Of a DNA stretch of 64,000 bases, positions 1-49,267 are shown piece after piece. Position 1 is the stretch's first letter. Each line of letters begins with the position of its first letter. The translations under genes were made by a program, and so were the position numbers. This stretch comes from Methanobacteriota archaeon (GTDB lineage: Archaea; Thermoplasmatota; E2; DHVEG-1): the NCBI GenBank assembly GCA_043806635.1, contig JAZDGT010000002.1, positions 41,974 to 105,973 on the forward strand, written 5' to 3'. Under the pieces are notes generated by a model. It did not search any database, was not told where the DNA came from, and was given only the letters and a program-made list of their open reading frames with translations.

Positions 1-351
1 GATATCAGTAACACCAGTATCCGGGATAATAATACTTCTACTGACTTGAGGAAGTTCAGGTGATCCTTTCACTTGAGTATGAGATTCTTTTTCAAGAAGA
101 ATATGCGAATACTCTTGATTGTTTATGTTTACAGTTTTCATAGTGAAACCGTTCAGATGATAGGTGATTGTGGTGGTATCTCCAATTGTTTGTGCTGCGA
201 TATCTATGTTTTGCTGGTTTTGTATGGTTTCATCATTGGTGGATAGTGTTCCGTAAACGATCGGTAAGGTACTTGCTCCAAAAAACAAACCTATTATTCC
301 ACAGATAACTAGAGTTCGTACTATGCTTCCTTTTCCATTCAAGATTTTCAT
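1..351 (-). CDS. Secreted protein, N-terminal fragment that continues past the window start. It has a signal-anchor helix followed by a beta-rich region like the N-terminal (propeptide-type) region of the C25-peptidase proteins at 500..4777 and 54817..58431.
   Basis: Reverse-strand ATG at 351-349 preceded by AAAGGGGGT (SD-like). Translation MKILNGKGSIVRTLVICGIIGLFFGASTLPIVYG...SPELPQVSRSIIIPDTGVTDI stays open to base 1. Absent from the ORF track because no stop lies in the window. Confidence 0.55.
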   Translation of the reverse strand, partial: MKILNGKGSIVRTLVICGIIGLFFGASTLPIVYGTLSTNDETIQNQQNIDIAAQTIGDTTTITYHLNGFTMKTVNINNQEYSHILLEKESHTQVKGSPELPQVSRSIIIPDTGVTDI

Positions 352-499: not shown

Positions 500-1792
500 T
501 TAAATTCCGTTTATCGTGAATTGAGTGAGCACTCCGGTCTTTGACTGTAGTTGCACGATGAAGGTGACTTGGTCGGTTTCAAATGTGATGATACAGGTGT
601 CTCCATGGTATAGTGGTTTCCCAACGACTGATGCTTCCGTAAAAAGATTGTAGAGTTCGGCTTGGTCGTATTTCAACACATTCTCAACTGATTTCCGTGC
701 TGCTGTAACGAGTGTATTCACTGCATAATCATGAAGCACACCAGAGCGTTTCAGGTTTGTTTGTACGAGTTTTATCTCAGAAGGAGTCAATGGTGAGGAC
801 GTCTCTGCAAAGGAGACTGTACACGTTTCGGTATTTGTGACAACGCCTTCAGGTGGGTCAGTGATCACCACATATTTATTCTTATACGTATCACCAATAA
901 TACTGATAGGTTGGAAATACGTGGTGAGGAACTGCTGAGTCGTCACATACGTGTTCCCACCCAAACCACCAGTCTTCGGATCATTCAACCAGAACCCATA
1001 CACCGTGATCACAGGGAAATCAGGGTAGTTCTGCCATGCGCTCCGGTTCGTGTGAATCCCTCGTACCGTCATCCAGTTGTTATAATTCCCATAGGTGGGG
1101 ATCGCTATTGGTACATTTGTGGGATGCCCGGGTTTCGGCCAAAACGTCGGGTACCCAAAATCACCGTTATGATCATAATCAACCCCGTACGTGAAATCAA
1201 GCCAGATACAGATATCCCGTAACACAACGGTTGCACTCGTGTTCGAAGCAGGCGTGAAGAAATACCCATACAGATCAATAGGCAAGGGTTTGAATTGATT
1301 TAAACCAGCACACATCTCATCAGTGGTGAGCGTAAGTCCACCCTGCGTGTTAAACCAGGTAAACAATTGTTGTTGATCCGCGTAGTGCATCGGTGGCCCG
1401 CTCGGGTTCAACGTACTATTCCACCACAAGTAGTTGAGCATCATCTGCGCTATTGCCGCCCCTGTATCCATCGTCGCCGTGTAGAATGGGAACTGCTTCA
1501 AATCACGGTAATGGACATTCAAAATCAGATTCTGGTTGATACTTTTCGCACTGATTTCTCCCGCGGTTACGACATGGTCAGTGACGTTGACTGATTCATC
1601 GTTGTCTCGTGCGGTGAAACGAAGTGTTTCGCTTGCGTTCACATCCCGGCCTGCATATATGACAAGGGAGTAATGATTATTGTTGGTACTTGCCTCCCAT
1701 TGTTCCCCGGTGTTCAGATTCTTTATTTCAACAGACACGGAGTTCACCGGACTCATATCATGGTAATAACAGTATCCCTCAATAGTGACTCG
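500..1792 (-). other. Shared C-terminal module, copy 1 (last 430 aa of the 1425-aa protein, plus stop).
   Basis: Begins RVTIEGYCYYHDMSPVN and contains HYRDLKQFPFY, DTGAAIAQMMLNYLWWN, GHPTNVPIAIP, NNWMTVRGIHTNR, YGFWLNDP and KYVVITDPP. Ends KTGVLTQFTINGI. Confidence 0.85.
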
Positions 1793-4777
1793 GTTGGCGC
1801 CAATCAGCCATTCAAGGACTCGGTTCATGACTTCGTTTCGGCTCGTCTGTGTATTAATCGCTTCAAAACCAAACGCAAAATACACGACTTTGTATCCGGC
1901 AGTATCTGTTTTCACTGCTGCTTTGTATGCTGATGACTGATACGTGAAGACCACGGTCCCTGGTGAAATCGCTTGAATTCCATCAGGATAATTTTGATTG
2001 TTTGCTCCATCACCACCGGAGATTCCCAGGGTTAATCCGTCACCGATAGGGTCACCAACGGTTCCTAATAACGTGTAAATATTAGTATCATCAACTTGAT
2101 ACGTCGCATGTAAATAGTTCGTATAGAATGGTGTCGTCCCGATATCGTATCCTATCTCTTGGCTGGTGAGGAAGAACCGACCACCATTGGTTAAAAAGTT
2201 TTGGAGGTTCGCCTGATCCGTCGAGTCAAGGGTGTCTGACCAGTCATCTCCACAGAACCAGATTACTGCGTCATAGGTTGCCATTATCGTTGATGAAGGG
2301 CTTCCTTGTGAGCTTCGATCCCATCGATCATAAAGGTAGTTACATGCCATAAGTGCATTTATATAATATGTCTCGTAAGATTCTCCGTAGTCATCATCAA
2401 CTAGCAACACGTACCCGTTTGCGATAAACACAGAAACGTTCTTACTCAGCTCATTATTCCCAAGATACGGTTCTTGACCAGCGATGGATGCAGCAATGGA
2501 GACCGGGTATGTCCCAGGAATGGTTGGTACCCAGTTGAAATTCACATTCGTACTCCCACCACTACTCAAAAATACTTGCTGTGTGGAGAGAACAACCCCG
2601 TTTTCTTTGAATGAAACCGTGATTAATTCATTTGTTGTCCCCGGGTTTGCTACGGTACCGACGACTATTGTCAGACGACCAACCGCGGCATAATCATTCA
2701 CCGTGATACTCGTCACCGCAACATCAGGACCAGCTACCACAAGCGTGCTCATCTCATTATCATAGTAGACATCCTCGATTACTCCAGGGATTGAAACGTT
2801 TATCGTTAAAAGGTAGACCCCAATCTCCAGGGGCGTCCATTCGAAATTCACCTGAGTAAACGATTGACTCGCACTAAATGGTATAGTAAACGTGTCGATT
2901 TCTTCATCATCGACAAGGAATTTCACCAAAACATTATATTCATCGTTTTGCCCGTTATTTGCGATAGTTGCCTCAACAGGCACCAGCTGACCAGGAAGAA
3001 CATGACTAGGGACATCAATCGATGTAACTGCAACGTTATGCTCAGGTAAAAACCGTGGTTTGATAGACAATGACGGATCACCTAATAAATTGTAACATTC
3101 CATGTAATACGTGCTCAACCCGCCACCACTATAATGTTGCCAGGTGTCATATTTTGCTTTATCAGTCATACCCGCTAAAAACCAGAGGCCTTCAACCCAC
3201 CACGCATGAAACATGGCTTTCTCCAAGATATCATCCTCATCCCAATACGTTGAGGCGGAGCTTCCCCAGAACGCGAGACCCCCTTTGTCGGGGACACGCA
3301 GCCAGGTTTCCCCAAAACATTCACTGATATCAAACGGGTTAGTGCTACAAGCATGGCTGCACACAAACGGGTACATATGGGCGTTCGTGAGATCATATCG
3401 GACATTATTCTGATCAAACGGTGGTCCATCAGCCCACCCCCCTGAATACCCATGACCTGAATAAACCGAGATCACACGACCATCGTTATGGGCATTAATC
3501 ACCTGCTGAGTCGTCGCACTATAGGTGTGACAATAGAGTTTATCACTGACATACCCCTCAGGATCAAGATACGTGCTAATCACATAATTATGGGTTCCTT
3601 CGGAAACCTGCCAATTATCCTCTGATGCCATAAACACTGCTTTCCCAAGCCACTCTGTTGAAGGAAACGTTCCTTGTTCGTACTCCAATGTTTTTCCTAC
3701 GATGATATTCATCTCCGCTTCAGTTGCTGCGGGAAAACGACCGATGAAGATATCTGGGAAAATATCACCTTGACTGATTGTGACGTAATAGAGATCCGTC
3801 GCAGTCCCACTTGAAGATCCGGTGTAGGTAGGAATCTGAGGGACGTCACCGGCTAGGAGAACGAACGAGGGAGGTACCGGCCATTCCTGATACGCTTGAT
3901 CAATATAGGTATGGATGTTTTCTTTTGTGGGACCGCCGGGGATTTGTGAGGTTTTGGTTACCGTGACCTCATATCCTATAGAATCTTTCCAATTCGCAAA
4001 GGGAAGAATCGCTGAGTAGAGCACATCAGGTACGATGATTAAAAAACCGGTTTGATCCTTCCCACCAATTGCATATCCTTGATTGAATTGACCATAATTA
4101 TCAAAAAAAGATTGATACAGAAGATTAAAATCAGATGAATAATATCGTGCTTTATTCGTATATGTTTTTACCAGGTCACTACCTGGTAGACTAATCTGAA
4201 TATCACAGGATTTCATCACATGTAATTCCCCGGAAACAGGGTTATATTGGACTGGGGAGATCTCAATAAGTATGAATCGACTCCCTCGTATTTCTCCCTC
4301 TTCGGTTATCCGTGCAGGTGTTTCTGGGAAAAACAGGTCTTGATGATAGTAATTTTGATTAATCGTAAAAGGTGTATTCTTGTTTCCGTCCAAGGTTTTT
4401 GGTATTGATGGTTGCACAGGAAGTATTCGGTTTGAGAGACCTATTTGTTGAAGCGATGTGGTTCTCCATTCCACCGATGAAAGTGTGAGCGAAGGAGTTG
4501 ATTCGTATGGTATTTCAAGTATTTTTGTAATAACCGGGAGTTTCGCCTCGCCGACGATGGTTGTATACCCATAGTTTGGAAGGTCGAGTGTTGCGAATAT
4601 GCCTTGTGTGGTTTGGATATTTCCGTAAGTGATACTTGGGATGTCTATATGGAGATTTATTGTTTGGTTATTTTCGTCTAGAGTGTTTCGGCTTCCTATT
4701 GATGGAACAATGCTCAATAAAACGAATAGACACACTATTCCATACACTATCTCTTTTTGTAGTATTTTCTCTCGCAT
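500..4777 (-). CDS. Giant secreted protein (1425 aa). Order: signal anchor, propeptide-like region, C25 (gingipain/clostripain-fold) cysteine peptidase domain, two CARDB-like Ig domains, an unassigned alpha/beta region, then the shared C-terminal module.
   Basis: N-terminal hydrophobic helix IVYGIVCLFVLLSIVPSIGS. His motif VYSGHGYSGGW and Cys motif FVCSHACSTNPF with C25-like spacing. Two repeats of the type DVAVTSI...G....V...ANNG/ANPG (CARDB-like). C-terminal 430 aa homologous to the ends of the next three genes. Confidence 0.8.
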   Translation of the reverse strand: MREKILQKEIVYGIVCLFVLLSIVPSIGSRNTLDENNQTINLHIDIPSITYGNIQTTQGIFATLDLPNYGYTTIVGEAKLPVITKILEIPYESTPSLTLSSVEWRTTSLQQIGLSNRILPVQPSIPKTLDGNKNTPFTINQNYYHQDLFFPETPARITEEGEIRGSRFILIEISPVQYNPVSGELHVMKSCDIQISLPGSDLVKTYTNKARYYSSDFNLLYQSFFDNYGQFNQGYAIGGKDQTGFLIIVPDVLYSAILPFANWKDSIGYEVTVTKTSQIPGGPTKENIHTYIDQAYQEWPVPPSFVLLAGDVPQIPTYTGSSSGTATDLYYVTISQGDIFPDIFIGRFPAATEAEMNIIVGKTLEYEQGTFPSTEWLGKAVFMASEDNWQVSEGTHNYVISTYLDPEGYVSDKLYCHTYSATTQQVINAHNDGRVISVYSGHGYSGGWADGPPFDQNNVRYDLTNAHMYPFVCSHACSTNPFDISECFGETWLRVPDKGGLAFWGSSASTYWDEDDILEKAMFHAWWVEGLWFLAGMTDKAKYDTWQHYSGGGLSTYYMECYNLLGDPSLSIKPRFLPEHNVAVTSIDVPSHVLPGQLVPVEATIANNGQNDEYNVLVKFLVDDEEIDTFTIPFSASQSFTQVNFEWTPLEIGVYLLTINVSIPGVIEDVYYDNEMSTLVVAGPDVAVTSITVNDYAAVGRLTIVVGTVANPGTTNELITVSFKENGVVLSTQQVFLSSGGSTNVNFNWVPTIPGTYPVSIAASIAGQEPYLGNNELSKNVSVFIANGYVLLVDDDYGESYETYYINALMACNYLYDRWDRSSQGSPSSTIMATYDAVIWFCGDDWSDTLDSTDQANLQNFLTNGGRFFLTSQEIGYDIGTTPFYTNYLHATYQVDDTNIYTLLGTVGDPIGDGLTLGISGGDGANNQNYPDGIQAISPGTVVFTYQSSAYKAAVKTDTAGYKVVYFAFGFEAINTQTSRNEVMNRVLEWLIGANRVTIEGYCYYHDMSPVNSVSVEIKNLNTGEQWEASTNNNHYSLVIYAGRDVNASETLRFTARDNDESVNVTDHVVTAGEISAKSINQNLILNVHYRDLKQFPFYTATMDTGAAIAQMMLNYLWWNSTLNPSGPPMHYADQQQLFTWFNTQGGLTLTTDEMCAGLNQFKPLPIDLYGYFFTPASNTSATVVLRDICIWLDFTYGVDYDHNGDFGYPTFWPKPGHPTNVPIAIPTYGNYNNWMTVRGIHTNRSAWQNYPDFPVITVYGFWLNDPKTGGLGGNTYVTTQQFLTTYFQPISIIGDTYKNKYVVITDPPEGVVTNTETCTVSFAETSSPLTPSEIKLVQTNLKRSGVLHDYAVNTLVTAARKSVENVLKYDQAELYNLFTEASVVGKPLYHGDTCIITFETDQVTFIVQLQSKTGVLTQFTINGI

Positions 4778-4989: not shown

Positions 4990-6240
4990 TTATTTCAGGT
5001 GTACTGAGAATTGTTGTCCTGCACCATCAACGCCAAGCTTCACTGTGATATCCATGTTGGTGTTACCAACGGTGATGATATAGCCGTTTCCTGTGCGCAT
5101 TGGTTTTCCAACCGTCCTAAGACCAGAGATGAGTGAACCATAGGTGAGGTCGTTACTCAGGACACTGTTCACAAAATCAATGGCTTGCTGTCCTAGAACG
5201 AAAGATCCAACGTTCGTTTTCAAAGTCTTGATCTCAGTTAGGGTGAATCCGCTCTGTGTTCCTACTTTTAAGCTGATGCTATTCGTGTTAACTGCGGGTG
5301 CATCGCGTGGCGGATCAGTGATCACCACAAACTTGTTATTATAGTAATCGCCGGGGACGTTTAATTTCTGGAAATATGTACTATTAAAGTATTGATACGT
5401 AACATAGACATTATTCCCGACGCCACCGGATACAGGGTCATTCACCCAGAACCCATAAATCGTTACCGGACCATTAATGAGCTCGTGATCACCAGGTACA
5501 TTAGTGTCCCACATGCTCCGGTTCGTGTGAATACCACGGATCACCATCCAATGATCATACGATCCACCAGTGGGGACCGCGATCGGGACATGATACGGAT
5601 GACCCTCTTTTGGTACATCAACAAGTCGGTGTTCGTTCGACCCACTAATATTATAATCAAGCCAAATCACCGCGCTCTTCAACGCATCCACTGCCAGATC
5701 ATGCCCAGACGGAGCGAAGAAATAACCGTAAATCCACCCGTGACCATGGTCATCGATTTCCGCGTTCAAACCACCAGAAAGTTCACTGACGTTCATCTGG
5801 TTCCCACCCGCATACGTATTGTATAATGTTTGTTCATTGTACACACTCTGCGGTTCTGGGAACAGGGTGTCGTTCCACATACAGTAATCAAGCATCTGCT
5901 TCATCACCATCGCACCACTATTTACTTGTGAGAGGTAGAATGGGAACTGTTTCAGATCGCGATAATGAACTTTAAGAGTCAGATCAAGTTGAACATATCC
6001 TGCAGCGATGTCTGACGTGGTTATTAATCGATTCGTGACATTGACTGAGTTATCATTATCTCGAGCGATAATGCGGAGGGTGTCTCCCGCATGTATCTCA
6101 TCACCTGGTACCAAGAACTGGGTATAATAATTGTTATTCGTGTCTGCTTGCCATTGCCCTCCCGTATTAAGATTACTGATGTCAACAGTGATGATATTCG
6201 CAGGACTCATATCGGGGTAGGTACAATATCCTCTAACCTC
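4990..6240 (-). other. Shared C-terminal module, copy 2 (last 416 aa).
   Basis: EVRGYCTYPDMSPANIITV, HYRDLKQFPFYLSQVNSGAMVMKQMLDYCMWN, GHPYHVPIAVP, DHWMVIRGIHTNR, YGFWVNDP, KFVVITDPP. Confidence 0.85.
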
Positions 6241-9200
6241 GAACAAACTCATTTCGCCAATCATGAAACTCATAATATCAGTGCTTACAATGTTGTAGCT
6301 TGTATCACCGAACGTTATTTTCCATCCAACTCGGGTTCCTTCAGGTATTCCGGGGTTCTGCCAGGTGAAGTTCGCCCAGGCCCATACACCTGGTTCTGTG
6401 TTCAGATTTAATGGTGAACCATATGCTGATATGCCTTCGGTTTCTTCTCCGATTATTGCGAACGATGAGGGCTGAGACATCATGATGTATTCTGTTCGAG
6501 TCCATGCATCACTTCGAATCACATTTGCTATACGAATTTCATCGATCTTTCCGTTCATCCAATATGCATTGTTATCCATGTTGGTTCCGATGTTGAGACC
6601 GATTGTTTCAGGGTTTATGGTACCGGTGAAATAGATCCCGGCTTCGGTTAATCCATTCACCATAACTTCGAGAAGATCAGTCGTAGGATTCAGTCTCGTA
6701 GATGTGTAATACCATTGTGGGTTAGATGTGCTGATGTGGGTATCACTATAACACACAGGGATATCTGTCGAAGTATGAGTCCGAGCTTTAAAGCTCTCAT
6801 TAGTCCAAACATGTAAGGAGATACTGTAGTCTCCGTCTCCTTCGAAAAGATACCGTCGTTGTCCGTTGTTGCCATCAACATATACCCAGGCACTAGCAGT
6901 ATATGCTGCATCTGCTGGTATTCGGAATCCTGATGTTTGTACATAATCATTGGATCCATCGAAATCTACGCATTTTCCAATCTTGCCCTGCTGATTAAAG
7001 AGAGGGCCGCCTCCGGAGCTTGTGATATCCCAGTGATTCGCAGTGCTATCATCAAGTTCTGTATAGCTTGCTCCGCTCATATGTTGTACCATAATGAACC
7101 CATTACTCCAAGTTTCTTCAACGTATTCTTGATTATTGCAGGATGGGTTTCCATAATATAGATAAAGAATTGTATCTGTTGTTGAGCTAAGAAACGGGAT
7201 CTTCACCCAGGCAGTTAACTCGCCTGTTGGGCTGTAATAATATTCGATTTCATGAGCATATTGGGTTGAGTTATCCTGTGAAACGAAGACGAAGTCGTCC
7301 CCATCAGGTTGCGCATGGTTAGTGAAATCCGATGAGGTGCAGGTGATTACCACAGGAAAATCTGTGAAATCAGCTTGGACTTTGGTGTGATCAATCGTTA
7401 TCCTTTTTGAGTATTCCCAGTTGAAATTCCACCAGTTTAATGTAGCGTAATCAACCCATTCACCAGTTTCATTTGTGGAGAGGTACGCAAAATCAAGTCC
7501 TATGTTGTCCCGGCTTTGAGCAGAAAGCGTAACACTTCCTCCAGGGGGGATTGCGGATGAGGACTGTCCTTGATTGCGTATCTCAGGGTCGAGAGTATCG
7601 ATGATTGTTACGATTTTTTCAGCGGTATGACCCCAGAGATTCAGGTTATCTTTTGCGTGTATGATATAATATAATAGTGTTTTATCTGCTGCAGCGGTGA
7701 TAGTCCGCTGGTAATATCCACCGGTGAGCATCATACTCACATTCGTGTGAACGCCACCTTCATACCAATAGTCGACGTACACAGCTGCGATACCGTCATC
7801 GTCATAGACAGAAGCGTTGAATGTGAAGCTTGATCCCGTGGATGCAATAAGGCTTGTGTAATCATAGATGATCGGGTTTCGGAGAACATAGAAACTCATA
7901 ATATTTGTTCGATTCCAGTTACCTGAGGTGTCATTGTAGTAGATGCGCCATCCGACTCGTCGTCCTTGGGGAACTGCCCAGGTGTGCCAGCTGAAGTTTG
8001 ACCAGACCCATTGATCTTGAATACCACCATAACTTATTGGTGATCCATACATTCCTGATGTAATGTTCTGCCAGACTCCAGTCTCATTGGTGGCAAGGAA
8101 TGCTTTATTCAATGAGATACCGTCTTTTCCTTGGCTAGTCAGGAGGATGGGTTCTCCTCGTTGGATTGTTGTACGGTTCTGCCCTTGATTCTGCCATTGG
8201 GGTTTGAAATAATCGATGAATCCAAACTGAACGGTGACGTACCCTGGAGTGTTTTTTGGTGTATCCGGGGATTCTGGGGATGTTCTCGTTGGGCTCCCGG
8301 GGGTATAGATGGTTTCATAATATTCTACTTTAAACGAGGTGATCGTTCCATCCTGCGCGGCATCTCCTATCTCTAGATAGAACGAGTCTCCACCGCTAAT
8401 CCATTCGTTAAAGAATTCTGAGATATCGAGACACATGAATGAGGGATACGTATGCATTGAACCTGAGTATCCATTCCACCAGGGTTGTCTCGTCTCAAGA
8501 GGGGCTCCATGTGGACCAATCCCGAGGGTTACAGAAGCGTCACGGTTCGGTCGAGGGTTTAAGCTCCATCGCCCAAGAATTGTTGGGTGTGTCCCAGGAG
8601 TATAAAGGGCTGTCACATAATTCATTGGTTGAGTGTTCCAGCTTCCTTGTAACGCAGCGTACGTCATCCAGTAATAGCCTGTACCTGTGGGTCCCCAGTA
8701 TCCCCAGGAGTTCGCGACTTTAAATGCACCGGTTTCACCTGTTTCCGCATCGACTTTCGTATCATCATATCCAACGACCGTGTTCGCATGATTAATACTA
8801 TAGCGCATCGCGTTTAAACCTAAGACATTGTCACTTCCGAAATACCCATAACTATCTGCATCAAGCGCAAACGTGATAGGGTATCCTGCATCAAGTGTTG
8901 CTTTTAATACGCTAAGACTTTTTGTAACCTGATAGATCTGATTCACTCGGTACGGGGGGGCGTCTCTCCATGCATTTTCGTTTCCCCAACCTACAGGGTC
9001 TCCATCGTTATACGGCATTGTGCTCAGTCGAGCAGTGCCGACTCGTTGAGAAACCCGCATGTTCTCCCAGGTGACAGACCCGCTATCATATCCATAGTTG
9101 CATTTGTTATACGTCCATGCTGGGCTTAATAATTGATTGGAATTCCCTGAATGCGCCTGAGTCCAATCATAGTTTTTCGATATGACATACCCAGTAGCAT

Positions 9201-9672
9201 AGTAAGTGGCTGCCCATGCGGCACACGACCCTTGTCCGCCCTGGTTACCTATTATTGGAAAACATGAATCAGCGGAGAGGTCGACGACAGACCGCAGTGG
9301 ATTTGGTGGAGGAAGCTCATCAACGATAATAAGAGACCCAACCATCTCGATATAGTCTGCTTCACTCGGTGGTGCGTACCCTGTTCCATGACCATCGTAG
9401 ATGATGTTATAGTTTTTTGCTGGGTCGTAAACCCCAGCCTGTTGTTTCAATGCTTCGATGTCTTCTTTTGTCGCAAGATGGGTGACTATACCGGTAAGAC
9501 TGTCATTTGTTTTTTGTTCGGCATAAGGTGTAGTTTCTTGTTTCATTGGTTGAGCAAAGGCTCCTAAGATGCAGGGTGCAATGCTTGTTCCAATGAACAG
9601 TAGGATGATTCCTAGAACTAGAAAATATTTTAACACATTGTTTTGCATGGTTTCGTATTCCTCCCTATTCAT
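4990..9672 (-). CDS. Giant secreted protein (1560 aa). Order: signal anchor, papain-like C1 cysteine peptidase, several Ig/beta-sandwich domains, DUF2341-like plus LamG (concanavalin-like) domains, then the shared C-terminal module.
   Basis: C1 triad motifs NQGGQGSCAAWA (Cys150), SINHANTVVGYDD (His295) and VANSWGYWG (Asn321). DUF2341-like WEYSKRITIDHTKVQADFTDFPVVI...ILYLYYGN. LamG-like VDFDGSNDYVQTS...ASAWVYVDG. C-terminal 416 aa homologous to the other modules. Confidence 0.85.
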   Translation of the reverse strand: MNREEYETMQNNVLKYFLVLGIILLFIGTSIAPCILGAFAQPMKQETTPYAEQKTNDSLTGIVTHLATKEDIEALKQQAGVYDPAKNYNIIYDGHGTGYAPPSEADYIEMVGSLIIVDELPPPNPLRSVVDLSADSCFPIIGNQGGQGSCAAWAATYYATGYVISKNYDWTQAHSGNSNQLLSPAWTYNKCNYGYDSGSVTWENMRVSQRVGTARLSTMPYNDGDPVGWGNENAWRDAPPYRVNQIYQVTKSLSVLKATLDAGYPITFALDADSYGYFGSDNVLGLNAMRYSINHANTVVGYDDTKVDAETGETGAFKVANSWGYWGPTGTGYYWMTYAALQGSWNTQPMNYVTALYTPGTHPTILGRWSLNPRPNRDASVTLGIGPHGAPLETRQPWWNGYSGSMHTYPSFMCLDISEFFNEWISGGDSFYLEIGDAAQDGTITSFKVEYYETIYTPGSPTRTSPESPDTPKNTPGYVTVQFGFIDYFKPQWQNQGQNRTTIQRGEPILLTSQGKDGISLNKAFLATNETGVWQNITSGMYGSPISYGGIQDQWVWSNFSWHTWAVPQGRRVGWRIYYNDTSGNWNRTNIMSFYVLRNPIIYDYTSLIASTGSSFTFNASVYDDDGIAAVYVDYWYEGGVHTNVSMMLTGGYYQRTITAAADKTLLYYIIHAKDNLNLWGHTAEKIVTIIDTLDPEIRNQGQSSSAIPPGGSVTLSAQSRDNIGLDFAYLSTNETGEWVDYATLNWWNFNWEYSKRITIDHTKVQADFTDFPVVITCTSSDFTNHAQPDGDDFVFVSQDNSTQYAHEIEYYYSPTGELTAWVKIPFLSSTTDTILYLYYGNPSCNNQEYVEETWSNGFIMVQHMSGASYTELDDSTANHWDITSSGGGPLFNQQGKIGKCVDFDGSNDYVQTSGFRIPADAAYTASAWVYVDGNNGQRRYLFEGDGDYSISLHVWTNESFKARTHTSTDIPVCYSDTHISTSNPQWYYTSTRLNPTTDLLEVMVNGLTEAGIYFTGTINPETIGLNIGTNMDNNAYWMNGKIDEIRIANVIRSDAWTRTEYIMMSQPSSFAIIGEETEGISAYGSPLNLNTEPGVWAWANFTWQNPGIPEGTRVGWKITFGDTSYNIVSTDIMSFMIGEMSLFEVRGYCTYPDMSPANIITVDISNLNTGGQWQADTNNNYYTQFLVPGDEIHAGDTLRIIARDNDNSVNVTNRLITTSDIAAGYVQLDLTLKVHYRDLKQFPFYLSQVNSGAMVMKQMLDYCMWNDTLFPEPQSVYNEQTLYNTYAGGNQMNVSELSGGLNAEIDDHGHGWIYGYFFAPSGHDLAVDALKSAVIWLDYNISGSNEHRLVDVPKEGHPYHVPIAVPTGGSYDHWMVIRGIHTNRSMWDTNVPGDHELINGPVTIYGFWVNDPVSGGVGNNVYVTYQYFNSTYFQKLNVPGDYYNNKFVVITDPPRDAPAVNTNSISLKVGTQSGFTLTEIKTLKTNVGSFVLGQQAIDFVNSVLSNDLTYGSLISGLRTVGKPMRTGNGYIITVGNTNMDITVKLGVDGAGQQFSVHLK

Positions 9673-9829: not shown

Positions 9830-11110
9830 TTATTGATTTTTTTCACTAGTTTTTTCTGAGCTTTTAATAACGATTTGGGCAAGAGCACCAGTTTTTGTAT
9901 AGAGTTGCACTTCAAAGACCAATCCAGCGGTGTCAAAGAAGACCGTACAGGTATCATCTTTATTATAGACTGGTTTTCGTATGACTCGTGTGTTTTCAAA
10001 GCAAGGACTATACACAGAATCATATTGGAGTACGGTTTTCGCGGCTTTTGCTGCGGCATGGATGACAAGGTTATCAATTGGTTTTGTAGTAGTTGTTTTA
10101 CTTCTTTCAGCAACAAGTTTCATTTCAGTTTTGGTGAATCCCGTCGCAGGTTCAGCGATCGTAACAGTGACTTGATCAGTATACACTAGTATATCTCGTG
10201 AGGGGTCAGTTATAGCGAGGCGTTTCCCGTTGTAGAGATCCCCGGGTACGGTGAGGTTGAGGAAGTAGGTGCTGAGGAATCGTTGCGTGGTGACGTACGT
10301 GTTTGCTCCTAACCCTCCTGCTTTTGGATCATTAAGCCAGAACCCGTACACATTAAGTTGCGTTGGTGGCAGCCACGCGTTCCGATCAGTATGGATGCCT
10401 CGGATCGTCATCCAGTTGTTGTAATTTCCACCTGTAGGGATGGCGATGGGGACATGGTTCGGATGACCGGGTTTGGGAACATCGACATCTCGGATGTTGT
10501 TGTAGTAGTTGACGGGGTAGTCGAGCCAGATGCAGATCTGTTTCAGGACATCGTTCGCGTTGGTGCTAGCATACGGTGAGAAAAAGTACCCGTAAATCCA
10601 CCCATGTCCATAGTCGTCAATTTCGTTATTCAATCCTGAGGTGAGTTCACTTCCATTAATAATGTTATCAGTTCCTTTATAGGTGTTGTAGAGGGTTTGT
10701 TCGTTGTAGACATCGGGTGGCCCTTCAGGGTTCATTGTCTGATTCCACATGAGGTAGTCCATCATCATTTTCATCGTCATCGCACCTGTATCTATTTGAG
10801 AGAGGTAAAAGGGGAAGTCTTTCAAGTCCCTATAGTGGATATCTAAAATAAGATCACGAATGATGGTTCCATTATTGATATCATCAGTGGTGACTTGATA
10901 ATCGTACACCTTGACTGATTCATGAGTATCTCGTCCGATAAATCGAAGCATATCACCAACATTAAAATCACTCCCAGGATACAATTGAAGGGAGTATATG
11001 TTATCAAACGCGTGTGCACACCATTTCATACCTGTGTTAAGATTACTGATTTCTACTGTGATGTTGAATACTGGGCTTTGATTCTGATAATATACTGATC
11101 CAGTGAGTAT
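9830..11110 (-). other. Shared C-terminal module, copy 3 (last 426 aa).
   Basis: ILTGSVYYQNQSPVFNITV, HYRDLKDFPFYLSQIDTGAMTMKMMMDYLMWN, GHPNHVPIAIP, NNWMTIRGIHTDR, YGFWLNDP, KRLAITDPS. Confidence 0.85.
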
Positions 11111-13756
11111 GTATCTCCACCCAGTCGGTTTCATAAACGGGTACGTATCCTGGTTACTCTGGGGTGGAATAAGGTATGGTATGTCACCGATGCCATCAGG
11201 TCCAGGTATATCCTGATTTGGACCATGATTATTATCTACTCCAGAGTAATCGTCCCAATAGTTACCACCTGAAGGGTACCCATTATCCCAAGTATTGGTG
11301 GTATCATATTCATTCACCTGTTGCATATTATTCATGAAATTATTATGATAAAAATAATTATCTTCGCAAGTCATGGTGGTCAGCCCATAGCTACTGCTAT
11401 TTGAAATCGTGTTATCCAAAAGAAGGTTGTAGCTTGAATACCCAAAATGTAATCCAATTTCTTGATGATCAATGAGATTACCAATAATCTGATTCTCACT
11501 TGAAAGCCACAGTTCAATACCATCAGTGTTTTCTTGGATACTATTACCGGTTATGACGGTATTATCGCATACATACAATGAGATACCAATACCAGAGGTA
11601 AGCGGAAAACGGATTGTATTATTGGTTATCGTGTTTTGAGTACTATACCCAAGGGAAACACCAGTTTCTAGGTACTGATCGATCGTGTTGTTTGAAAACA
11701 AATTATTGAATGATTGATCAGCAAGGATTCCTATTAGGTTTTGTGACAGCATATTATAATTTATTATGTTCTGTGATGACCCTGTTTGCAGGACAATGCC
11801 AGTACCTTCGTTTTCATAAATGTCGTTTTCAACTAACGTGTTTCGATGCGCATCATAGAGGAACACCCCGTTCCCAGGATTGAGGATGATTTGATTGTTA
11901 CTGATGATGTTGTCTGATGAGGACCGTACCATAATCGCATCATGAACATTATCAGTGAATATGTTGTCTATAATAGTGTTGTTGTTTGCGTTGGAGAGTA
12001 TCGTGCCTTCCCCAGGATTATTCTGTATCGTGTTGTTTGAAATAGAATTATTATTGGAGTGGATATCAAGGCCTGCGTCTTCCCAACCAACTCCACAATT
12101 CTGCAGAGTAAAACCACTGATATTTACCTTGTTAGCTAGTACGAGGAGGGTATCGTCTCGTGCGTGGCCGTCTATGATGGTTGTTTCTCTTTGTTCTCCA
12201 AGTAGATTAATGGTTTTGTTTACGATCACGTTTTCAGTATACATCCCATTGTAGACGTGTACGGTTCCTCGTTCTATGACGGCATCAACACCATCCTGTA
12301 TCGTATTGAAATGATCAAACTGCCAGCCTGGTGTAGACGGATCATAATTATCATCGACATACACAACCGGTGGTTCAATCAGATAATGAAAATTCCCGCT
12401 ATGATGGATGTCATGACGGAACATTGGCCACCCTGGTTCGGTGCCGTCTCCTGCGGACAGCAGGTACGCCCGTCCATGGTTATTGGTTGGTGGTGAGGAG
12501 ATCCCGTATCCTCCGATAATAAAAATATCGAGTTTTCCGTCGTTGTTGAAATCAGCGATGATGGGTGCATGGTCGATTTCAAAGGTTCTGCCGTAATGTG
12601 CTTGGATGTTGTATGTCCATACGACACCGCCATTATCACCTCGGAGTACACGAAGGATTCCATCATCTGCACCGAACGCGACATCGAGAATATGATTTCC
12701 ATCAACATCAGCAATAGCTATCCCACGGAAGTTTCCTCCTCCCGCAGAATAACTCCATTGTTGACCCCCTGTGTGAGACAGGACTCCTATTTTTGTGTAG
12801 GCTGCATAGACGATTTCCAGATGGTTATCATTATCAAGATCAGCAATACTGGTTGGTGCACCAACGTAATAGGTGGTCGGATAATTCCAGAGTGGTCCAC
12901 CGTTTTCAGCATTAAACACGTACACATGATTATCATAGCAGCCGATTGCTAACTCTGGTTTTCCATCTTCATCAATATCAGCAAATGAGCACCCATGGTA
13001 CATGTAATCATTCGGTTGATCCGTAAACCATTTGGTTGCACCCGTTGACCCATTCAATGCGTATACACGACAAGTTCCTGCCCATTGGGAGACCACCACA
13101 TCAAGTTGACCATCAAGATCAACATCAAGGATGTTTGGCTCAGATTGAATATAGCTGTTTGTGCCAAGGTTAATCCTCCATTGAACGGATCCGTTCTCCC
13201 CATTCAAACAATACACATACCCATAGAATGCTCCAAAGATGATTTCTGGTTTCCCGTCGTTATCAACATCAGCAACCGCAGGAGGAGAATCAATAGAGTT
13301 AGGAGATGTAGAGCGCGACCATTCAACTGCTCCCGTAGAGCCGTTAAAACAATACACTCGACATGGTGAAGACGCAGGAACCACGACTTCTAAATCACCA
13401 TCTAAATCTACATCAGCAATCACTGGTGATGCATCATTACACCCACCAGTATCATACTTCCACAGCAACGTCCCATTTTCTGCGTTTAATGCATAAATAT
13501 TTTCATCGTTGAAATACGTACCAAACACAATCTCTAGATTCCCATCATGGTCAATGTCCGCGGTTGCTGCAGAACCAAACGATGGCGCAGAGAGATTATA
13601 ATACCAGAGAACCTGAGGAACCAAAGGTTCTCTCTGCATGTCATTTATTTTATCTATACTTGCTGATTGTGAATATAGTAATCCATTTGCTAATGGCGGT
13701 ATAGTTCCAATCAACAACAGAACAACAATAAAACTAAACAATTTTTTTTCTATCAT
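9830..13756 (-). CDS. Giant secreted protein (1308 aa). Order: signal peptide, FG-GAP/PQQ-like Ca-loop beta-propeller, right-handed parallel beta-helix (NosD/PbH1-like repeats), then the shared C-terminal module.
   Basis: Eight loops of the type ADIDHDGNLEIV, ADVDLDGDLEVV, ADVDNDGKPEII and ADFNNDGKLDIF, alternating with Y.LNG..G...W strands. A long series of roughly 22-aa repeats (N.I.NN.I..N..GI.L) typical of beta-helices. C-terminal 426 aa homologous to the other modules. Confidence 0.85.
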   Translation of the reverse strand: MIEKKLFSFIVVLLLIGTIPPLANGLLYSQSASIDKINDMQREPLVPQVLWYYNLSAPSFGSAATADIDHDGNLEIVFGTYFNDENIYALNAENGTLLWKYDTGGCNDASPVIADVDLDGDLEVVVPASSPCRVYCFNGSTGAVEWSRSTSPNSIDSPPAVADVDNDGKPEIIFGAFYGYVYCLNGENGSVQWRINLGTNSYIQSEPNILDVDLDGQLDVVVSQWAGTCRVYALNGSTGATKWFTDQPNDYMYHGCSFADIDEDGKPELAIGCYDNHVYVFNAENGGPLWNYPTTYYVGAPTSIADLDNDNHLEIVYAAYTKIGVLSHTGGQQWSYSAGGGNFRGIAIADVDGNHILDVAFGADDGILRVLRGDNGGVVWTYNIQAHYGRTFEIDHAPIIADFNNDGKLDIFIIGGYGISSPPTNNHGRAYLLSAGDGTEPGWPMFRHDIHHSGNFHYLIEPPVVYVDDNYDPSTPGWQFDHFNTIQDGVDAVIERGTVHVYNGMYTENVIVNKTINLLGEQRETTIIDGHARDDTLLVLANKVNISGFTLQNCGVGWEDAGLDIHSNNNSISNNTIQNNPGEGTILSNANNNTIIDNIFTDNVHDAIMVRSSSDNIISNNQIILNPGNGVFLYDAHRNTLVENDIYENEGTGIVLQTGSSQNIINYNMLSQNLIGILADQSFNNLFSNNTIDQYLETGVSLGYSTQNTITNNTIRFPLTSGIGISLYVCDNTVITGNSIQENTDGIELWLSSENQIIGNLIDHQEIGLHFGYSSYNLLLDNTISNSSSYGLTTMTCEDNYFYHNNFMNNMQQVNEYDTTNTWDNGYPSGGNYWDDYSGVDNNHGPNQDIPGPDGIGDIPYLIPPQSNQDTYPFMKPTGWRYILTGSVYYQNQSPVFNITVEISNLNTGMKWCAHAFDNIYSLQLYPGSDFNVGDMLRFIGRDTHESVKVYDYQVTTDDINNGTIIRDLILDIHYRDLKDFPFYLSQIDTGAMTMKMMMDYLMWNQTMNPEGPPDVYNEQTLYNTYKGTDNIINGSELTSGLNNEIDDYGHGWIYGYFFSPYASTNANDVLKQICIWLDYPVNYYNNIRDVDVPKPGHPNHVPIAIPTGGNYNNWMTIRGIHTDRNAWLPPTQLNVYGFWLNDPKAGGLGANTYVTTQRFLSTYFLNLTVPGDLYNGKRLAITDPSRDILVYTDQVTVTIAEPATGFTKTEMKLVAERSKTTTTKPIDNLVIHAAAKAAKTVLQYDSVYSPCFENTRVIRKPVYNKDDTCTVFFDTAGLVFEVQLYTKTGALAQIVIKSSEKTSEKNQ

Positions 13757-13861: not shown

Positions 13862-15145
13862 TTACTGCACGGATACCTGTTGGGTCGATATCTGTATTTC
13901 TAAAAGGGATCCATCGAGTGTATTGATGAGTATTTTAAAGGTGGTACCTTGGTGAGCAAAGTTGACTAAGCAGGTGGCTTTCTCATATCGTGGTCTTGCG
14001 GTTGGTTGTGCTGACGTAAAAAGATCCGCATACACAGGATCGTTTTTAAGGACATCACTTGCTGCCTCATACGCAGCGCGAATAACAATGTTATCAGTGA
14101 TGATATTGGTTAGTTTTCCTTTCACTAGTCGATTGACAAGTCGTGCCTCGTTTGCTGAGAACTTAACAGGTGATTCAACGAAATTTACAGCTGTATCAGC
14201 AACAGGAGAAGCAATATCTCGTGGCGGATCGGTTATCGCTAGGTATGTCCCATTGTAGGTATCATTCAGAATAGTGATGGGTTTGTAGTAGACGTCGAGG
14301 AATCGTTGTACAGTCACATAGGTATTACTGCCGACTCCGTTTGGTTTGGGGTCGTTGAGCCAGAACCCGTACACATTGAGTTGTTCAGGGGGTAGCCACG
14401 CGTTCTGATCCGTATGTATCCCACGGATTACCGCCCAGTTGTTATAGGCTCCATATAAGGGTATCGCGACGGGCACGTGGTTCGGGTGACCGAGTTTAGG
14501 GACATCGACATCACGAAGGTAGTTGTAGTAGTTAACAGGGTAATCCAACCAGTAACAGATATGTTTTAACGCAGGGGTGGGACTCGCGTTGTGATAGGGT
14601 GCGAAGAAGTATCCGTATTGCCATGGTGGTGTTTGGTTGCGATCGTCAATGAGTCTGTTGAGTCCGCTGCAGAGTTCGTCTCCATCGAGGTATGTTCCTC
14701 CATGAATGTTAAGTGAAATAAATAATTCGTGTTGATCAGGGTACGTCAGGGGTGGCTCTGAATATTGGGTGTTGTTCCACATGAGGTAGTTCAGCATCAT
14801 CTGTGCAACGGTCGCACCGGTATCAACTTGGGATACATAGAATGGGAAACTCTTGAGATCACGGTAATGTACAGTGAGAATAGGATCAAGGGTGATACTT
14901 CCCGTGCTGATATCAGAACTGGTAACGATGTGATCAGTGATGTTCACGGACTCATTTTCGTCTCGAGCGATAAATCGGAGGATCTCTCCTTGGTGGACAT
15001 CAACACTATTAATGATAGCTGTAGAATAGTAATTAGTCTCTGTCTCTGCCTGCCAGGTCTCTGTCGTATTCAAATTACGGATCTCCACGGTGAGGTTATT
15101 CACCGGTTGCATACCCGGGTAGTAACAATGTCCTTGAATGGTTAA
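13862..15145 (-). other. Shared C-terminal module, copy 4 (last 427 aa).
   Basis: LTIQGHCYYPGMQPVNNLTV, HYRDLKSFPFYVSQVDTGATVAQMMLNYLMWN, GHPNHVPVAIP, NNWAVIRGIHTDQ, YGFWLNDP, TYLAITDPP. Confidence 0.85.
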
Positions 15146-18100
15146 TAAGGGGAGTGATGTGGTGATTTTTACTTCATCGATAACACCGAGGAACGGGAGG
15201 TAACCGCCCCAGCCGCTGAGTCGTTTACCGATACCTAGGTTTTGGGTTGTCGCCGCTGGTGCATACGACCACGGTGTTTGTCCTTGTGGTTGTCCATCGA
15301 CATAGATTTTTATGGCACTTCCATCCCAGGTTCCGATAACGTGATGGCATATGTTATCTCGAAGATCAGTCGTTCCCATGACGTCTTGGTTCCCATGAGA
15401 ACCGCTGTAGAGGGAGAAACGGAGTCTCCCGTTGGTGAGATACAGGGTGAATCCTCTGGAATCAGAACCGCTAATATATTGATACTTATCCGCAATCGTG
15501 AGGTAGTTATCTGATCCGGTGGCTTTGATGTATGCTTCGACGGTGAATGGGCTGGTGATTGCTAAACTAGTTGAATGTGGGACGGTGACACAGTCGCCGT
15601 CGTACCATTGTCCGCCACCGTGGAAGTAGAGTGCGTTTCCTTGGCAGCCGGTGGTCCAGGTTGCTCCTGTGATGGTGCCATCGTTATGATTTGGTGAGGA
15701 ATCATGAGCAATCGTTCCTGATCCTTCTTCGAACCGCCAATACCCTGCGACGGCTCCAGTAGTAATGGTTTCTGTGGTGAAATGCCAAATCGAGCTTGCG
15801 GTAGAATACCCGTAGGAATCATAAGCCATTATCATCCAGTAGTAGGTGGTGTTATCATGAAGCGTACCAGGGTTATAGGTTGTTGTGGTTTGTCCTTGTG
15901 AAACAATAGTGAAAAGAGTAGGATCGTATCCCCAATACACATCATAGGTGAGGGTATCCTCAGGATCGGGGTCACTACAGCTCCAACTCAGGTGAGAATA
16001 AATCGAGACGTTCAGAGCATCATTACTCGGTGTGGGTGATTGAGGAGTGGTAGGTGCGAGGTTGGATTTCGTGGTAAACGACCAGATTGGCCCAAGTGTT
16101 GAGAGACCAGCGTTATCCCAGGAGATAATCTGCCAATAATATGTGGTATCGTACGCGAGATCGGGAAGATTATAAGCAGTTGAGGATTGATGATCGGAGA
16201 TTAATGATGGGTTTGCTGTCTCTCCAAAGTAAACATCATAGGCAACGGTTTCACCAGCGTCAGGGTCGCCACCCGTCCAGCTGAGATCACTGGTGAGGAT
16301 GACCGTTGTTGCCTCATGTGCTGGTGATGGATTAGAGGGTTGATAGGGTGGACTATATACGTAGTGTACGGGGAGGGCATAGGTTGCACCGATATCGTCG
16401 CTGATGACGACATCTTGGTATCCATCGCGATTGTTATCTGTAATTGAGACGCCTCGTGGGTTTCCTATTCCCATGAATTCTTTGAGTAGCTCATGATTCT
16501 GATTGAAGATGGTGACTCCACCAGTTTGGACGATCGCAAGATCATTTTGACCATTTGTGTCGTAATCACCGATAGAAATCCCCTGTGGATTGGCGAGTCC
16601 ATAAAATTCATCGATGAGTTGTCCGTTGGTTCGGTAGATATAGACGACCCCCGTCTCAGAGGATATTGCAACATCGTTCAGCAGGTCGTTGTTGTAGTCG
16701 CCGATAGAGACGTCACGTGGGTTTGGAACGTTGTATTCTCGTAGGATTTGCCCATAGCGATTATAGACGCGGACCCCTGCCGGATTAATAAGTGCGATAT
16801 CCTGGGATCCATCGTTGCCGAAATCTCCGACTGCGGAACCGAGCGGCTCAACAAGTTTCGTCAGCATCGTCTCGTATCCAACGTCACAATAGTCCAGTAT
16901 ACTCTTATACGGTAAGGGAGCCGCTAAACAGTTCTCGTAGGTATCACCGATGAACGGGTTGTAGGTTTGTGTGGCATTGGTTCCATTCCGATGATCAATG
17001 AAACCGAAGAAAATAATCACGGGTCCATCCTCGGTTGCGACTGCAAGATCGTTGTATCCATCGCGGCTGAAATCCTTAATCGTTACACCCTCAGGACCAT
17101 CCAACCCGGTGAACCGGGTGATAATATCACCGGTGTTAGAATAAACAGTGACACTTCCTCGTGTGTATTCAGCAACAACGAGATCGTTATCGCCATCATT
17201 GTTGAAATCACCGATAGAGACACCCAAAGGACCACTCAGGTTCGTGAGTTGCAAAATGATCCCTCGGGATTGATCATGGACGGTTACCAGTCCACGTTCA
17301 TATTCTGAGATAACGACATCATTGAATTCATCATTATCAAGAGTACCAATGGCTAAACCACGGGCTCCTGCCAACCCGGTGTATTCAGATATGAGCCCAC
17401 CAAAACGATCGTAGATACGAACACTCGCATTGAAATCTTCAATGAGTCCAACATCTAAGTGAGTATCATCGTCGTAGTCATCAATCGAAACACCCATGAC
17501 TTGACGTAACCCGAACAGGCTGTCTTCGATGTCCCCAAGGCCATTTTGCACAACCATACTACCAATATTCGTATTGAGGAGTTCTTTGAACCTGGAATTA
17601 TCCAGTTTTTGACTTAAAATAGTTCGTCCCTCATTGTTACCGAAAAATAATCCTATATCATTCTGTATAAAATGGGATATTCCTCCGGGGTTCTCTTCAC
17701 CACCACCAGGGGAACCTGGAATAAGGTTCGCGTAAATAGGTGTTCCCCAGTTTAAAGGACCGCCAGAGAATTGCCGTGCGAGTCCGCAGTAGTTCCCACC
17801 GATCACCCGGAACGCAGCAGGTGGATTTTGGTACGCCTGTGGAAGGAACAAGCTGATACTTGTTGCTGGTCCACTGTATTCTTGACCACCAGGTTTTGCA
17901 GGATCTGATGGAAAAATCCATTGTCCACCGACATATTCACCTTTTTGGAGAATATAAAACGTTGCCCCAGGTACCGATGTCCAGCTTATCGTGAATTGCT
18001 GCTGAGACAAAATATTCGATCCATTAATCGGTGCCGTGATTATGGGTGTCCCTACAGGTGGACTCATGCCAAGCAGGGTACAATCTGGGACAAGGACTTG

Positions 18101-21708: not shown

Positions 21709-25421
<3,713 letters not shown>

Positions 25422-47863: not shown

Positions 47864-48385
47864 ATGACTGATATAATTCTTAAATTCAAATATACAGAAG
47901 ATGAATTTGTTAAAACAATGAAAAAATTAAATTATAAATTTTATAAATGGCAAATATTTTATTACATTTGCTTTATTATCATGGGATTAATAAATTGGCT
48001 TTTCTGGAACGAGACAACTTTGATTGTTATATGGATTAGTTTGGGTATTTTTGGATTATTCATATTTTCTTATGATTTTTATATACAACCTCGTAGATTC
48101 TTCCGAAAACATCCAAAATTACACGATGATTTTAATATCACTTTTACTGATGAAGGAATTGAAATAAAAACAAAACAGATTAATTTGATATTGGGATGGA
48201 ATAATTATAAAAAAGTTTTAGAAGATAAAAGTACATATATTCTTGTAAGGAGTTTACGTTCTAAAATAATCACTGAATTATTTCGCACTTTTATTCCTAA
48301 ACGCGTATTTGAAAATAGCCAACAAGAAGAAGATTTTAGAAAATTATTATCTGAAAAGGTTTCCAAGGATTTTAATAAAATTTAA
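47864..48385 (+). CDS. YcxB-like membrane protein (two TM helices plus a small beta domain).
   Basis: SD GAGGAG. WQIFYYICFIIMGLINWLFW and LIVIWISLGIFGLFIF. Very AT-rich. Confidence 0.5.
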   Translation: MTDIILKFKYTEDEFVKTMKKLNYKFYKWQIFYYICFIIMGLINWLFWNETTLIVIWISLGIFGLFIFSYDFYIQPRRFFRKHPKLHDDFNITFTDEGIEIKTKQINLILGWNNYKKVLEDKSTYILVRSLRSKIITELFRTFIPKRVFENSQQEEDFRKLLSEKVSKDFNKI

Positions 48386-48499
48386 ATTCATTGTCAACGT
48401 TGAGCATAAAACAAGATGTTCTAAGGGAATGTTGTAAAGTTAGGTGTTTCTGATTTAAAGATTATTCTTTGATATATAAAAGGTTGAAAGAAATAATTA

Positions 48500-48596
48500 T
48501 TACTTTTTTGCGGCTTTAAAATAATCTATAAGTCTTTGTATCACTTCTGAGTAAGTTTCTCCTTTTTCTGCTATCACAAAACTTCTACCTTTTAAT
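48500..48596 (-). pseudogene. 3' remnant of an antitoxin-like gene, truncated at repeat copy C.
   Basis: The reverse-strand reading ...LKGRSFVIAEKGETYSEVIQRLIDYFKAAKK* matches ...NESYDEVIKKLIYIVKNLKK of the 47205 antitoxin. No start codon occurs before the reading frame enters the repeat. Confidence 0.45.
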
Positions 48597-49176: not shown

Positions 49177-49225
49177 GTTGTTTCATATTGCAGATCAGAT
49201 AATTTCTAAATTCAAATTTAAATAG

Positions 49226-49255: not shown

Positions 49256-49267
49256 CTGTTTCTTATT

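Follow-up and report, generated by a model that had tools for sequence, protein, structure and literature searches.

A three-domain C-terminal module with a core that looks papain-like on four otherwise unrelated secreted proteins of a Thermoplasmatota archaeon

In the window analyzed here, a stretch of 64,000 nucleotides (nt) of contig JAZDGT010000002.1 from a Methanobacteriota archaeon placed in the Thermoplasmatota (positions 41,974 to 105,973 of the forward strand, assembly GCA_043806635.1), four tandem minus-strand open reading frames (ORFs) encode proteins of 1425, 1560, 1308 and 2503 amino acids (aa), each of which ends in one copy of a module of about 420 aa. We tentatively suggest, with a probability of roughly 0.4, that this is a mobile extracellular module with a pseudo-peptidase core, the retained cleft of which would give diverse N-terminal parts (heads) a common binding specificity.

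The four copies align collinearly with a mean column identity of 63% and about 110 invariant columns, their pairwise amino-acid identity is 39-51%, and a hidden Markov model (HMM) built from them scores 692-747 bits on each copy and finds no further copy in the window. Given this score and the number of invariant columns, low-complexity sequence does not account for the similarity, which is far beyond chance and marks the four copies as homologous. The initial annotation had already described the last 430, 416, 426 and 427 aa as collinear and homologous, and its boundaries held to the nucleotide. The conserved motifs that it listed are present overall, but copy 3 has GSVYY instead of G(Y/H)CYY and copy 1 has WLDF instead of WLDY and GHPTNVP instead of GHP.HVP. 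The 20-mer that it had noticed in copies 3 and 4 was recovered at 10335 and 14358 and codes for NVYGFW within the most conserved motif (YGFWLNDP). Overall nucleotide identity between the copies is 52-57%, the same codon is used at 45-51% of identical residues, and two 90-nt windows of copies 3 and 4 reach 81-83% identity. Because nucleotide identity is this low, because synonymous sites look saturated and because the shared 20-mer lies in the YGFWLNDP motif, recent gene conversion between the copies is ruled out. For each of the four copies, relatives from other genomes are closer (57-72% identity) than the remaining window copies, and a single N-glycosylation sequon, Asn125, is kept in all four.

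N-terminal of the module the Pfam content of the four proteins differs (Table 1), and BLASTP between the four heads gave no similarity at E<=1e-3. The description of the N-terminal parts as unrelated, and of the whole as variable heads on a constant tail, therefore stands for the window and also extends to the family, in which the closest relatives of the module elsewhere often have unrelated heads. The domain assignments in gene 1 are clear (Peptidase_C25 8e-65, Propeptide_C25 1e-17, CARDB 4e-12), and protein P0021 is a full-length orthologue with 63% identity; in the same collection, P0015 is identical to gene 4. Using a Kyte-Doolittle value above 1.8 over 19 aa as the test for hydrophobicity, we find one hydrophobic segment per protein, at the N-terminus. 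The C-termini are polar (e.g. ...FTINGI and ...KSSEKTSEKNQ), and the four proteins carry neither a C-terminal transmembrane helix nor a PGF-CTERM/archaeosortase-type signal, as had been noted, nor do they match the type A domain of the type IX secretion system (T9SS; TIGR04183).

The AlphaFold2 model of copy 1 (m1c0665c03145; predicted local distance difference test score, pLDDT, 84; predicted template modeling score, pTM, 0.85) divides the module into three domains, A, B and C (Table 1). The initial annotation had foreseen two of these from the letters, a small N-terminal beta-sandwich and an alpha/beta segment of about 100 aa at the end, and the model agrees with both; the papain-like core between them was absent from that account. 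Between the window copies, the core is 48-62% identical, the sandwich 43-54% and the C-terminal domain, which is the least conserved, 13-35%. In a Foldseek search with the whole module the matches listed were mainly generic beta-sandwiches covering the N-terminal ~100 residues only, and the neighbors of domain A, among them SlaB (8qox_B, E 3e-3), an intradiol dioxygenase and CnaB domains, all have E >= 3e-3. Because the whole-module search was uninformative, the core was modeled alone (pLDDT 84). Among the 50 matches listed for this model against the PDB, papain-like cysteine proteases are the majority: the best are the CdiA-CT toxins 8ssk/8ssm and toxin 9l5u (E 8e-3 to 2e-2, probability 0.96-1.0), and further ones include staphopain (1pxv), IdeS/IdeC/Mac-1, phytochelatin synthase (6tho) and cathepsins S, L and H. 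Foldseek against the viral models of BFVD returned nothing useful. The core thus looks like a papain-like (clan CA-type) protease fold, with weak scores and with support at the level of the fold.

To describe the putative active site we use residue statistics from 160 family members aligned to the module HMM, numbered as in copy 1; counts at position 110 rest on 139 aligned sequences and those at positions 270 and 271 on 158. By secondary-structure topology and by the spacing between the His position and a Gly at +6, residues 110, 239 and 271 would correspond to the papain catalytic positions. Position 110, at the N-terminus of helix 112-123, is Thr in 56 sequences, Ser in 52, Cys in 24 and Ala in 6; in copies 1-4 it is Thr, Ser, Thr and Thr, and the catalytic Cys is present in none of them. 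The helix motif, FP(F/M)Y..(Q/E)..(C/S/T)G(P/A)A..QM.LNY..WN, resembles the nucleophile helix of papain-like enzymes, and in the Cys-type relatives (CGPAVAQM.LNY.WWN) it is a typical papain-like/C39-like nucleophile helix. Position 239, at the start of the central strand and next to an invariant Trp, is Asn in 96 sequences and His in 34, the rest being varied (Arg, Ser, Asp, Lys, Trp, Tyr, Gln, Thr); copies 1-4 have Asn, His, Asn and Asn. The motif here, (N/H)W....RG, has an invariant Gly at +6, a spacing that we take to be equal to that from His to Gly in DHAVAAVG of papain. Asn270-Asp271-Pro272, which ends strand 262-271, is near-invariant (Asn270 in 154 and Asp271 in 152 of the 158 sequences), and Asp271 is found in all window copies. 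Position 226, in the GHPxHVP motif, is His in 126 sequences and Asn, His, His and His in copies 1-4. Copy 2 is the sole window copy with Ser-His-Asp. Cys110 and His239 do not occur together in any of the 160 aligned relatives; all Cys-type members have Asn239, and His239 co-occurs only with Ser, Thr or Ala at position 110.

The module belongs to a large family without a name in the libraries searched. Pfam-A gave no match to the four modules at E<=10, NCBIfam on the four full-length proteins gave none for the module, a PDB sequence search with module profiles A1 and A5 gave none, and neither did Pfam on the cores of 10 Cys-type relatives. This agrees with the initial annotation, which did not recognize the module as a named family and proposed a profile search as a check. 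Word-indexed homologue searches returned 13 relatives each, without informative names, and the size of the family emerged from an exhaustive HMM search, which gave 625 cluster representatives (50% identity) at E<=1e-3, 409 at E<=1e-10 and 187 at E<=1e-30, from archaea as well as bacteria. The names at source are mostly 'hypothetical protein'. A taxonomic scan of species-representative genomes yielded 42 module loci. The archaeal ones lie in metagenome-assembled genomes (MAGs) of Thermoplasmatales, in 'Methanobacteriota archaeon', in Methanophagales/ANME-1 and ANME-2/Methanosarcinales (ANME, anaerobic methanotrophic archaea), in Argoarchaeum and in a MAG of the Promethearchaeota (Asgard); the bacterial ones lie in Phycisphaerae/Planctomycetota, Acidobacteria, Omnitrophota and a Desulfuromonadales MAG. 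Several genomes have more than one module gene: there are four here, tandem pairs in two loci of Thermoplasmatales MAGs (L017 and L023) and four loci in one Thermoplasmatales MAG. No neighboring gene family is conserved across the 42 loci, and the neighbors of P0005 are housekeeping genes only. A compact core sub-variant (HYCLNYYPDYPYY...WSGPAVMQ) without the GHPxHVP segment occurs in P0141, P0143, P0131 and P0138 (ANME/Methanosarcinales), and in loci L022, L032, L034 and L038 genes of this sub-variant are surrounded by others in which the N-terminal beta-sandwich is the sole part of the module present.

The heads found among the relatives comprise peptidases of at least seven families (C25, S8, C1, C10, M14, M28 and trypsin-like) and other extracellular domains (beta-helix/NosD, Kelch, PKD, CARDB, cadherin-like, CBM96 and cohesin). 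Apart from the full-length P0021, near relatives of the window modules have only module-adjacent domains in common with the window proteins or have unrelated heads, which argues that whole modules are shuffled among proteins. In the four window proteins and about 35 close relatives the module is at the extreme C-terminus, with 0-21 residues beyond it, and in P0071, P0140, P0142, P0146 and P0074 it stands alone behind a signal peptide. Distant members have an extra domain of about 80 aa after the module ('...ELVYR..SPYYPDWKITI..FYVSQDGTV') that is weakly PepSY-like, two of 26 members matching with a best E of 0.0038. The T9SS type A domain ends all four relatives that were tested for it (P0083, P0089, P0151 and P0068; 29.6-45.6 bits against a curated cut-off of 23), one relative ends in Ca-binding dockerin/TSP3-like repeats, and in others a cohesin follows the module. 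Because T9SS domains, cohesin and dockerin-like repeats follow the module, anchoring or sorting in some relatives is supplied by other domains. The stand-alone forms, the shuffled heads and the sorting domains placed after the module together characterize it as an autonomous extracellular domain unit and not as a sorting peptide.

Combining the predicted fold with the residue statistics, we suggest that (i) the core keeps a papain-type scaffold without the canonical Cys-His pair, so that canonical catalysis has presumably been lost, (ii) the retained cleft would serve to hold a ligand, of which a peptide or protein is the most plausible kind, instead of cleaving it, (iii) one binding specificity would in this way be given to heads as different as a gingipain-like C25 peptidase, LamG/DUF2341, a propeller plus beta-helix, and FG-GAP/LamG, and (iv) the heads could in this manner be held on proteinaceous particles or on surface proteins of the cell's own.

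Several observations weigh against this proposal and bear on whether the core could still be enzymatic. The fold match of the core is weak (best E 8e-3, with probability 0.99 and TM-scores of 0.38 on the query and 0.56-0.59 on the target; overall, TM-score 0.36-0.42 on the query and up to 0.59 on the small toxin targets), no profile-sequence link of the module to any clan CA family (e.g. Peptidase_C39_2, C1, C10 or C47) was found, and the papain triad was assigned to residues 110, 239 and 271 from topology and is putative. Ser, Thr or Cys occupies position 110 in 132 of 139 sequences, to which a functional hydroxyl or thiol fits better than a dead site; because these residues are kept while the residue at the putative His position varies, the pattern is at odds with the simple decay of a dead enzyme. 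Moreover, Ser/Thr-His-Asp is present in about 27 relatives, copy 2 included, and is possibly a working triad, and many other polar residues (R244, H247, T248, N270, D271, N280 and H226) hardly vary between Planctomycetota and ANME archaea and thus between domains of life, as one would sooner expect of an enzyme, or of a site for one particular ligand, than of an unspecialized surface that binds proteins. The retained hydroxyl or thiol, the possible triad and the near-invariant polar residues favor the alternative of a papain-fold hydrolase or transferase that uses the Ser/Thr/Cys nucleophile with a non-canonical base, either on an external substrate or on its own chain (autoproteolysis at Asp-Thr-Gly-Ala, between Asp and Thr). 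The stand-alone secreted forms similarly suggest that the module has a function of its own, and there are precedents in that some papain-like families are built on Ser, and bleomycin hydrolase and congopain remain measurably active after a Cys-to-Ser exchange (PMC10318531). Yet about 60% of members have Asn at the putative His position, which varies in the others, the very members that have Cys all combine it with Asn, the alternative His226 is Asn in copy 1, and no peptidase model gives a catalytic-type match. We consider an active core the main rival of our reading, though an unlikely one. Far less probable is a self-acting form of it, in which a papain-fold enzyme with a Ser/Thr/Cys nucleophile would cleave itself at the Asp-Thr bond named above or transfer its protein covalently to an envelope component. 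If true, this would be a built-in maturation and attachment device common to wall-less Thermoplasmatota, ANME archaea and Planctomycetota, and an undescribed mechanism of surface display without a separate sortase.

Alternatively, the function of the module may lie in the placement or processing of the heads. The initial annotation had proposed that the module attaches its proteins to the envelope, in which case it would dock non-covalently on a surface-layer or membrane protein or on the glycocalyx of the probably wall-less Thermoplasmatota cell. That the four window proteins and about 35 close relatives end in the module without another anchor, that several secreted proteins per genome carry it, as is typical of anchoring modules, and that the sequon Asn125, which fits surface exposure, is kept in all four copies are in line with this idea. 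Nevertheless, conservation of residues is high although the carriers, from Planctomycetota to ANME archaea, differ greatly in their envelopes; in the relatives in which T9SS domains, cohesin or dockerin-like repeats follow, the module is not the anchor; stand-alone secreted modules would leave nothing to anchor; no partner gene is conserved nearby in the 42 loci; and the hydrophobic segment at the N-terminus might stay uncleaved and be an anchor in its own right. Given the stand-alone forms, the domains after the module, the strong conservation across unlike envelopes and the lack of a conserved partner gene, we do not favor a dedicated sorting signal; an envelope anchor may apply to the Thermoplasmatota subfamily, in which another anchor is absent, but the family-wide evidence weakens it and makes it rather doubtful as a general explanation. 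Least likely is a role as a cleavable domain for sorting, secretion or maturation that a dedicated machine would recognize and take off, or as an intramolecular, propeptide-like chaperone or inhibitor of the heads. The C-terminal domain of T9SS substrates is removed by PorU, a sortase of the C25 family, and C25 peptidases occur in the same array (gene 1, the protein at 54817..58431 and probably the partial gene at 1..351); in addition, the module is C-terminal on many secreted peptidases, of at least seven families, and the extra tail of distant members is weakly PepSY-like. Against this, 420 aa in three domains is far above the size of any known sorting signal, the module is internal or stands alone in many relatives, true T9SS domains come after it in some bacteria, many heads (LamG, propeller, Kelch) need no inhibitor, the window C-terminal domain has no PepSY signal and does not resemble the PepSY-like tail when their profiles are compared (hhalign, probability 1.9%), and no neighboring machinery is conserved. 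On balance, we prefer a pseudo-peptidase with a binding cleft, tentative as this reading is.

Table 1. Coordinates of the four module genes, of the module copies and of the domains of copy 1 within the window.
Feature	Coordinates	Strand	Description
Gene 1	500..4777	-	1425 aa: N-terminal signal peptide or anchor, C25 propeptide, Peptidase_C25 (gingipain-like), 2x CARDB, region without assigned domain, module
Gene 2	4990..9672	-	1560 aa: signal peptide, N-terminal part without assigned domain, DUF2341, Laminin_G_3, module (Pfam)
Gene 3	9830..13756	-	1308 aa: signal peptide, FG-GAP/PQQ-like beta-propeller, right-handed beta-helix (NosD-like), module (Pfam)
Gene 4	13862..21373	-	2503 aa: signal peptide, long region without assigned domain, FG-GAP repeats, Ig-like domain (weak Ig_Rha78A_N match), Laminin_G_3, module (Pfam)
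Module copy 1	500..1792	-	430 aa; stop codon 500..502; Thr110 codon 1463..1465
Domain A, copy 1	1517..1792	-	residues 1-92; all-beta sandwich of ~92 aa (GYCYY...NLNTG...LRF.ARD..ESVNVT); strands only in the AlphaFold2 model
Domain B, copy 1	818..1516	-	residues 93-325; alpha+beta core that looks papain-like; AlphaFold2 core model m5376535746d8
Domain C, copy 1	503..817	-	residues 326-430; alpha/beta domain of ~105 aa, three helices and a four-stranded antiparallel sheet, up to the stop codon
Module copy 2	4993..6240	-	416 aa; sandwich 5971..6240, core 5272..5970, C-terminal domain 4993..5271; Ser108 codon 5917..5919
Module copy 3	9833..11110	-	426 aa; sandwich 10841..11110, core 10166..10840, C-terminal domain 9833..10165; Thr108 codon 10787..10789
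Module copy 4	13865..15145	-	427 aa; sandwich 14873..15145, core 14189..14872, C-terminal domain 13865..14188; Thr109 codon 14819..14821

Directly downstream of gene 1, a fifth secreted-protein gene begins at 1..351 (minus strand) and continues beyond the window edge; its N-terminus (MKILNGKGSIVRTLVICGIIGLFFGAS...) has a segment that looks like a signal peptide, and the sequence after this is similar to the C25 propeptide in gene 1. At 54817..58431 (minus strand) a 1204-aa protein combines a second Peptidase_C25 and its propeptide with NosD/beta-helix sequence and has no module, and thus the module is not on every secreted C25 protein of this genome. The 727-aa protein encoded at 52169..54352 (minus strand) has a transglutaminase-core domain, also a member of the papain-like clan, and a weak GHL10 match. 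Its gene is spanned by one of two stretches of low GC content (52001..54000, 0.32, and 48001..50000, 0.33, compared with about 0.42 elsewhere), which lies just past tRNA-Thr (51938..52012). In related sediment Thermoplasmatota (Thermoprofundales), extracellular C25 and other peptidases are reportedly carried and expressed (PMC6461988).

The remainder of the window consists of archaeal housekeeping genes, i.e. those for a CTP-dependent riboflavin kinase, a NOG1-type GTPase, NrdD with an intein, tyrosyl-tRNA synthetase and enolase. The tyrosyl-tRNA synthetase is 77-82% identical to proteins labeled 'Candidatus Thermoplasmatota', 'Thermoplasmatales' or 'Euryarchaeota archaeon'. The gene for NrdD, the anaerobic ribonucleotide reductase (40301..43438, plus strand), is split by the intein, which has a LAGLIDADG-type segment. 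At 21709..25421 (minus strand) a bacterial-type NAD-dependent DNA ligase (LigA, with a BRCT domain) adjoins a PolX-PHP polymerase on this archaeal contig; because the two ORFs as listed overlap by 76 nt, the TTG start of PolX may be misplaced.

The module defines a large family (at least 625 clusters at 50% identity) without a Pfam, NCBIfam or PDB counterpart in the copies searched, the members of which are mostly called 'hypothetical protein'. Its carriers are large extracellular proteins, with many peptidases among them, from sediment lineages that are uncultivated (Thermoplasmatota, ANME/Methanosarcinales, Asgard archaea, Phycisphaerae, Acidobacteria and Omnitrophota), and such Thermoplasmatota are presumed degraders of detrital protein. 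A domain definition would improve the annotation of these giant proteins; the module could show how such cells hold secreted enzymes near the cell or near substrates, and it provides a concrete case for asking whether a papain scaffold with Ser/Thr/Cys but without the canonical His binds or cleaves.

Among known systems, the nearest solved structures are those of papain-like peptidases (CdiA-CT of Citrobacter rodentium, 8ssk/8ssm; 9l5u; 1pxv; IdeS/IdeC/Mac-1; 6tho; cathepsins S and L). As in these, the core has a helix with the nucleophile position at its N-terminus followed by an antiparallel sheet, the central strand starts at the putative His position and the next strand ends in Asn/Asp, and the Cys-type relatives have the CGP...M.LNY helix motif. 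Unlike in these, there is no sequence or profile match, the Foldseek scores are weak (E >= 8e-3), the window copies have Thr/Ser for Cys and, in three of the four, Asn for His, and the core has long insertions and two flanking domains. The matches to CdiA-CT raised the possibility of a polymorphic toxin system, which is ruled out in that the heads vary while the tail is constant, immunity genes are absent and no neighbors are conserved in the 42 loci. In contrast to the variable toxin tip of CdiA-CT, the module is a constant tail with no immunity gene after it, and the intergenic gaps of only 105-212 nt leave no room for such genes.

Papain-like families with a conserved Ser for Cys, as well as inactive scaffolding members, are documented (PMC10318531); the Ser-substituted or inactive families include menin PF05053, APC5867 PF09641, DUF2145, DUF2272 and DUF3750. 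The module is similar to them in that a conserved hydroxyl residue replaces the catalytic Cys on a papain-like scaffold, but none of their Pfam models matches it. Moreover, these families keep the other two triad residues, whereas the putative His of the module is mostly Asn, and the module differs from them in mixing Ser, Thr and Cys, in being extracellular and in its fixed sandwich-core-alpha/beta architecture.

The T9SS C-terminal domain TIGR04183, dockerin, SLH, PPC and PGF-CTERM share with the module the use of a constant C-terminal unit on unrelated extracellular heads, often peptidases, with several such proteins per genome. Unlike these, the module is three to five times larger, has three domains with a protease-like core, matches none of their models, has no hydrophobic C-terminus, coexists with T9SS domains and dockerin-like repeats and also occurs alone behind a signal peptide. 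The secondary structure of its last ~100 aa, helices and then a four-stranded antiparallel sheet, is compatible with PepSY (PF03413); an identity of the window's last domain with PepSY is unsupported, Pfam giving no match at E<=10 and hhalign against the PepSY-like tail profile a probability of 1.9%. Domain A can be compared with the CarboxypepD_reg/transthyretin-like sandwich (PF13620 or relatives), being all-beta in the AlphaFold2 model with generic sandwich neighbors and no Pfam match. What the module has in common with known systems is thus the papain-like fold class and the principle of an accessory tail; what is new is the fixed sandwich-core-alpha/beta architecture, the mix of Ser, Thr and Cys without the His, and the use of this unit as a constant tail across archaea and bacteria.

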